42,704 nt of DNA from Eledone cirrhosa (Eukaryota). Under the pieces are notes generated by a model, which was given only the letters and a program-made list of their open reading frames with translations, did not search any database and was not told where the DNA came from. The position numbers and the translations under genes were made by a program. Shown here piece after piece: positions 34,761 through 34,954 of this stretch (positions are counted from its first letter, which is position 1; each line of letters opens with the position of its first letter). The stretch covers positions 1 to 42,704 of the forward strand of contig CAXHJY010000569.1 in the NCBI GenBank assembly GCA_964016885.1. The letters are read 5' to 3'.

Positions 34761-34949
34761 AACGAAGGAAATGTGGTAAGGAACCAGGTGGACCATAACG
34801 CACCAAAGTACTCAATACTTAGGGTAGTAGAGTGGGTAATAGGAACAAGTAAGACCCCGACGGCTGAGCTCAAGCCGTTTCGACGGCTAATTCTGTACAG
34901 AATTAGCCGTCGAAACGGCTTGAGCTCAGCCGTCGGGGTCTTACTTGTT

Positions 34950-34954
<5 letters not shown>
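34761..34954 (-). mobile_element. Family A element with a 116-bp perfect palindrome (34839-34954)
   Basis: Palindrome centred on tgt|aca in stem II; tail matches 11970-12046. Confidence 0.82.

Follow-up and report, generated by a model that had tools for sequence, protein, structure and literature searches.

A 116-bp palindrome in Eledone cirrhosa DNA is probably the head-to-head remnant of a Penelope-like element inserted into a (TA)n run

The stretch of Eledone cirrhosa DNA analyzed here (42,704 nucleotides, hereafter the window) is repeat-rich animal noncoding DNA, about 19% of which is perfect microsatellite; its SINEs and microsatellites appear cephalopod-like. Positions 34839 to 34954 are identical to their own reverse complement (116 nt, with 58-nt arms), as the original prediction had stated, and no other nonmicrosatellite perfect palindrome in the window has arms longer than 17 nt, the next longest having arms of exactly that length. 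The feature is thus real but smaller than the element containing it, whose hammerhead half, tail and class had been overlooked. The complete element (34760 to 34954) consists of a (TA)n run, a 79-nt one-sided tail, two head-to-head arms and a further (TA)n run (Table 1). Since it is asymmetric, with the palindrome at one end and the unique tail at the other, its arms do not qualify as terminal inverted repeats. The tail-side arm terminates at an internal TA-rich word near 34837 to 34841. The TA run that receives the tail is also where another repeat ends, which has a degenerate hammerhead-like motif (34660 to 34720, plus strand). The palindrome is bracketed by a 198-bp direct repeat, 98% identical and 1.1 kb apart (33964 to 34161 and 35070 to 35267), which represents either a local duplication or an assembly overlap.

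Table 1. Coordinates of the element, its sister copies and related features in the window
Feature	Position	Strand	Remarks
(TA)n target run, tail (3') end	34740..34761		From the sequence
One-sided 3' extension (tail), 79 nt, on one arm only	34760..34838	-	76/77 identical to 11969-12045, 39/42 to 18387-18428
Tail stem-loop: ACTC, inner stem and loop, 2-nt bulge, GAGT	34810..34833	-	Recurs in family B, D and G tails
Tail-side arm: 5'-truncated pLTR with predicted hammerhead 3' half	34839..34896	-	GAAA 34881-34878, GUC triplet 34861-34859
Central 30 nt: 13-bp stem, 4-nt loop, probably natural helix II	34882..34911		Inferred; axis 34896/34897 inside
Tail-less inverted arm, running into (TA)n	34897..34954	+	GAAA 34912-34915, GUC 34932-34934
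(TA)n target run, inverted-arm end	34952..34986		From the sequence
12-kb sister copy	11969..12151	-	Same layout, own mirrored variants, 13 nt gone from tail-side arm at centre
18-kb sister copy, opposite orientation	18332..18428	+	Tail-side arm and half of tail missing
21.5-kb diverged sister arm, with more upstream sequence	21525..21625	-	Catalytic core damaged; helix II of 12 bp; helix I 5' strand present in part
Tail stem-loop sites	34833-34810, 12042, 2339, 17053, 40356 (-); 39284 (+)		Looser copy near 3897-3925 (+)
Complete hammerheads	2381-2419, 3783-3834, 39022-39068, 40382-40430 (+); 26419-26370, 3428-3379 (-)		At least 4 other repeat families
Further head-to-head arm-plus-tail elements, families C, D, E, B	17565-17998, 39149-39360, 9480-9685, 26152-26302, 2278-2445		Junction points differ

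Masked self-BLAST yielded four copies of this repeat in the window, each of a different length (family A, named here by position as the 35-, 12-, 18- and 21.5-kb copies), and the comparisons that follow rest on these four. TA runs lie on both sides of three of them, and a degenerate run lies on one side of the other. The 21.5-kb copy contains neither a second arm nor a tail. Just upstream of it lies a GC-rich unique stretch (21610 to 21900) that may belong to the element or to the leader of an unrelated repeat. The loss of part or all of one arm in sister copies lends indirect support to the suggestion that the palindrome is prone to cruciform formation.

The 35-kb and 12-kb copies differ in the left arm at 34842/12052, 34847/12057 and 34852/12062 and in the right arm at 34951/12148, 34946/12143 and 34941/12138, every right-arm difference mirroring one in the left arm. 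The outermost difference adjoins (TA)n at the right arm, where the base of the 12-kb copy could be target DNA; therefore, although all three differences noted originally are mirrored, two sites are firm and one is ambiguous. Both firm sites fall in helix I, beyond its first 6 bp. Independent mutations at mirrored sites would be expected by chance with a probability of about 1e-3 for two sites and 1e-4 for three (transitions only). The comparison of arm with arm and copy with copy that had been proposed gave full identity within copies (55/55 in the 35-kb copy and 40/40 in the 12-kb copy), with 2 substitutions per aligned arm between copies. The 12-kb counterpart (12051 to 12149) is an imperfect palindrome, with 13 nt missing beside the centre and one base of the central four different.

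Read outwards from the centre, each arm contains GAAA, a helix III with a near-palindromic loop (34915 to 34933 in the inverted arm), a GUC triplet and the 3' strand of helix I (from 34935 in the inverted arm), and is by these sequence features the 3' half of a type I hammerhead ribozyme. This motif appeared in 0.7% of 3,000 shuffles of the inverted arm; across shuffled windows 8 to 26 such halves arose by chance, a frequency that makes the motif by itself weak evidence. All four family A copies carry the 3' half, with the core absent from three and damaged or displaced by 7 nt in the 21.5-kb copy. Lacking the CUGAnGA core, the inserted 35-kb copy is predicted to be a dead remnant that cannot self-cleave alone. 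The helix III region has a calculated energy of -33.9 kcal/mol as a self-dimer versus -8.7 as a monomer, in agreement with the dimeric design and palindromic helix III described for ribozymes of Penelope-like elements (PLEs) in the available part of PMC4209133. Rfam gave no hammerhead match in the element region; it likewise missed both of the complete hammerheads tested.

The 21.5-kb copy folds as a three-way junction (z of -3.6, with none of 200 shuffles equally stable). It is apparently an un-inverted copy and contains a 12-bp helix II hairpin at 21575 to 21607, a position homologous to the palindrome centre. From this single copy, the central 30 nt of the palindrome probably correspond to a natural helix II, with the axis in its loop. 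The 21.5-kb copy could alternatively be a decayed fold-back, which would require more changes. One strand of the putative helix II corresponds exactly to the 13 nt absent from the 12-kb copy.

Hammerheads are not limited to family A. Six complete type I hammerheads were found in the window, compared with 0.005 per shuffled window (200 shuffles), an expectation that is optimistic, as are those for the other motifs, because the descriptors were written after the sequences had been seen. Most of the repeats carrying them end in TA runs. Among 12 close nonmicrosatellite inverted repeats found without selection, 5 bear a hammerhead 3' half that faces outwards, and one more (26199) gains such a half once its arm is extended; the remaining six (2134, 2867, 10691, 10890, 13036 and 30199) bear none. 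By eye, an arm and a tail lie head to head with a second arm at 11 loci, the tail-less arm ending in a TA run at each, and wherever both arms are comparable (families A to E) this end coincides with an internal TA-rich word. Un-inverted units at 3760 to 3985 (plus strand) and 17000 to 17170 (minus strand) show the order ribozyme, AT-rich word, tail. Short solo remnants number, by our reading, about 20 in 43 kb.

Four tandem copies of an abundant SINE-like repeat, with a period of about 176 nt, occupy 40854 to 41564. Two further copies of this repeat lie tail to tail at 10677 to 10918, the left one lying between 18-nt direct repeats, as would follow from local copying into the tail of its neighbour.

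The stem-loop of the tail gave six matches in the window against 0.105 expected (200 shuffles). All six are in tails of hammerhead-bearing repeats, and two belong to family A. Across four families the outer stem is fixed and the inner stem varies; in the alignment, 37 of 38 cells are paired and two of the eight pairs are changed on both sides. This covariation was not above a column-shuffle control, being reached by 48 to 290 of 500 shuffles, and whole tails folded no better than shuffles (z of -0.3 and 0.0), so that the structure rests on the recurrence of the motif. The stem-loop is a candidate signal for binding or for the start of reverse transcription. In addition, an exact 11-mer is common to the tails of family A and family B, the latter of which has a complete ribozyme; all four exact matches are in tails (0.01 expected), whereas the count with one mismatch allowed was not unusual (7 of 100 shuffles).

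These features lead us to interpret the locus, with a probability of about 0.86, as a heavily 5'-truncated insertion of an endonuclease-bearing PLE into (TA)n, of which the terminal pLTR piece alone is left, in two head-to-head copies with a tail on one. The layout described for EN+ PLEs in the available part of PMC8557442 has at its 5' end an inverted copy that is 5'-truncated, and includes a 30- to 40-bp tail, and Hydra and Naiad families, Octopus ones included, target (TA)n. Here, a 5'-truncated inverted pLTR is adjacent and head to head, the tail is on one pLTR only, although with 79 nt it is longer than described, and the insertion target is (TA)n, or AT-rich. Inverted pLTRs are listed as routine in the part of PMC8969392 available, and recently active Penelope families are described in Octopus vulgaris (PMC13282606, in part). 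No match to the RT or GIY-YIG Pfam families was obtained in the 150 frames scanned of the 158 selected in the window, as expected of a truncated copy, and in the same frames no Pfam family scored above the cutoff, the one subthreshold match, to a pentapeptide family, lying on a tandem repeat. The 45-aa frame that is open through arm and tail had no match in a protein search covering longer proteins only. The Naiad clade is disfavoured, since Naiad elements are without canonical hammerheads according to the available text of PMC8557442. Family A motifs were not found in the PLE supplement of that paper, as far as available; seven distinct motifs of the window families plus the tail 11-mer gave 0 matches there, in a line-wrapped FASTA format that could hide matches. 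No sequence link to PMC4758252 was found in its available part.

Searches of other collections gave no further identity. Of 350 Rfam matches to the whole window, the 150 listed were all to microsatellites or generic hairpins; the one of these above its gathering score, Plastid-psbJ-2 at 12055 to 12218, was rejected, its score being driven by a TA run and a hairpin. Rfam on four small regions gave no hammerhead, and a tRNA scan of the window gave none. Two pattern scans of GTDB genomes gave 0 matches each, which argues against a prokaryotic relative or a contaminant copy.

MITEs of the Tc1/mariner or Mutator type are short, form hairpins and use TA targets. The present element is alike in all three respects and differs in its asymmetric tail, its ribozyme half and the lack of terminal inverted repeats at both ends; a MITE with such repeats was ruled against by the unique tail found at one end in their place. 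We consider it unlikely that the locus is a copy of a short nonautonomous unit, PLE-derived or MITE-like, that moves with a ready-made palindrome, the mirrored variants of each subfamily master having been fixed earlier by conversion. The 12-kb and 35-kb copies do have the same two ends and nearly the same centre, as copies of a unit would, but the shared centre would be explained by a natural helix II. Moreover, there are no terminal inverted repeats, the palindrome is confined to one end, the junction points vary among loci of the same layout in other families, and the 21.5-kb copy extends further upstream and has no second arm there.

In the PLE reading, a single source supplies both arms at insertion, so that variants of the source are mirrored and the arms covary. 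This supports the proposal that each palindrome was made from a single template at insertion, which would be the expected outcome of Penelope-like insertion. The other explanation originally offered, intrastrand conversion, is not needed to account for the identity of the arms. A history in which the arms had different templates at insertion, or diverged, and such conversion or cruciform repair homogenized them later is in our judgment very unlikely. Long palindromes can be repaired in this way, and the members of the inverted SINE pair at 10695 to 10918 are identical at 108 of 110 positions, versus 100 to 105 of 110 to 112 with six other copies. Nevertheless, the arms of other families differ (2 substitutions in 90, 1 in 53, 4 in 49 and 2 in 24), so homogenization is not general, and the 12-kb and 35-kb copies are close overall, as their tails show, so identical arms require no repair. 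Still more improbable is a fold-back artefact of sequencing or assembly. Reads are known to contain artefactual perfect palindromes that lack a spacer, and the 198-bp direct repeat surrounds the region; yet the layout recurs at a second locus, which has variants and a deletion of its own, the flanks past the arms differ, and the point where the inverted arm stops is specific to the family.

The solo inverted-pLTR layout is of an already known kind, to which the locus adds one more example, as it matches what the available parts of PMC8557442, PMC3846280, PMC11167929 and PMC8969392 describe. The closest case is that of the Penelope insertions with inverted pLTRs in Adineta vaga, which share the head-to-head pLTRs, the palindrome at the inverted junction and the tail on one pLTR, and for which self-priming was proposed on the basis of such palindromes (PMC3846280, in part). 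There, pLTRs of about 200 bp usually flank an ORF, with 8- to 10-bp target duplications and a 31-bp tail, whereas the present element is a solo pair of 58-nt arms with its 79-nt tail in a (TA)n target. A junction on a ribozyme helix, probable here, is not mentioned for A. vaga in the available text of that paper. Hydra-clade PLEs, present in aquatic invertebrates including Octopus bimaculoides, likewise insert into (TA)n and have a canonical 3' hammerhead; families B and E have the ribozyme format listed for this clade, in which helix II has an additional U at either side, while helix III of family A (5 to 6 bp, with a 7- to 9-nt loop) is longer than in the Hydra-clade ribozymes listed, the clade itself being defined by protein motifs (PMC8557442, in part). 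For Poseidon_Ac of Anolis, which also has a pLTR ribozyme, the protein cleaves AT-rich DNA and extends both of its strands, the tail of 30 to 40 bp is set by two starting points of RT, and ribozyme cleavage is dispensable in vitro; inverted junctions are left unexplained in the available text (PMC11167929). Non-LTR retrozymes (bioRxiv 10.64898/2026.07.22.740005 and PMC7229834, both in part) are similarly short, noncoding, PLE-related repeats with a type I hammerhead, but they are head-to-tail tandems of units that each have a complete hammerhead, and this assignment was rejected for an element that is head to head and truncated.

As for the mechanism, the RT/GIY-YIG protein of the element would nick (TA)n, one cDNA would begin at the tail end of the RNA, and the second arm would end or start at an internal TA word matching the target. 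The arms would rather likely meet where the 3' end of the cDNA is self-complementary, here in helix II. Within this reading, there are about even odds that the second arm is a separate cDNA, begun on the other target strand and annealed via the palindrome; it may instead, with somewhat less than even odds, arise when the first cDNA folds back and primes itself. In six loci the inverted arm extends beyond the upstream limit of the tail-side arm and in one the reverse holds, a difference that is not significant; of the remaining loci, two are without an inverted arm, two are symmetric and two are unclear. Two-strand priming is slightly favoured by the longer inverted arm in six loci, since under fold-back each of these would have had to undergo a deletion afterwards. 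The axis does not always fall in helix II, as families B and D are joined elsewhere (in helix I and just before GAAA, respectively).

A more comprehensive proposal, which we advance tentatively and regard as doubtful in its entirety, is that these inserts record PLE integration: the protein would bind the tail stem-loop shared across families and prime cDNAs from both strands of the cut (TA)n, the first at the tail end and the other at the internal TA word, helix II would join them, the hammerhead hairpin rather than cleavage would set the inversion point, and each insertion would make a fresh perfect palindrome, one arm of which is lost later. Neither an inversion point tied to helix II nor such a tail stem-loop was found in the largely open-access literature searched by title and start of abstract. 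The less known aspects would be the axis on the helix II loop, the internal TA word as the end of the tail-less arms, and a tail stem-loop common to several families.

In the PLE reading the palindrome is an ordinary product of Penelope-like retrotransposition, and such loci can be misfiled as MITEs. How tandem and inverted structures form, and the bias towards microsatellites, are named as unresolved in the available part of PMC8557442. If short solo copies are equally dense genome-wide, the position of the axis together with arm-private variants would provide a direct computational test of fold-back versus two-strand priming.
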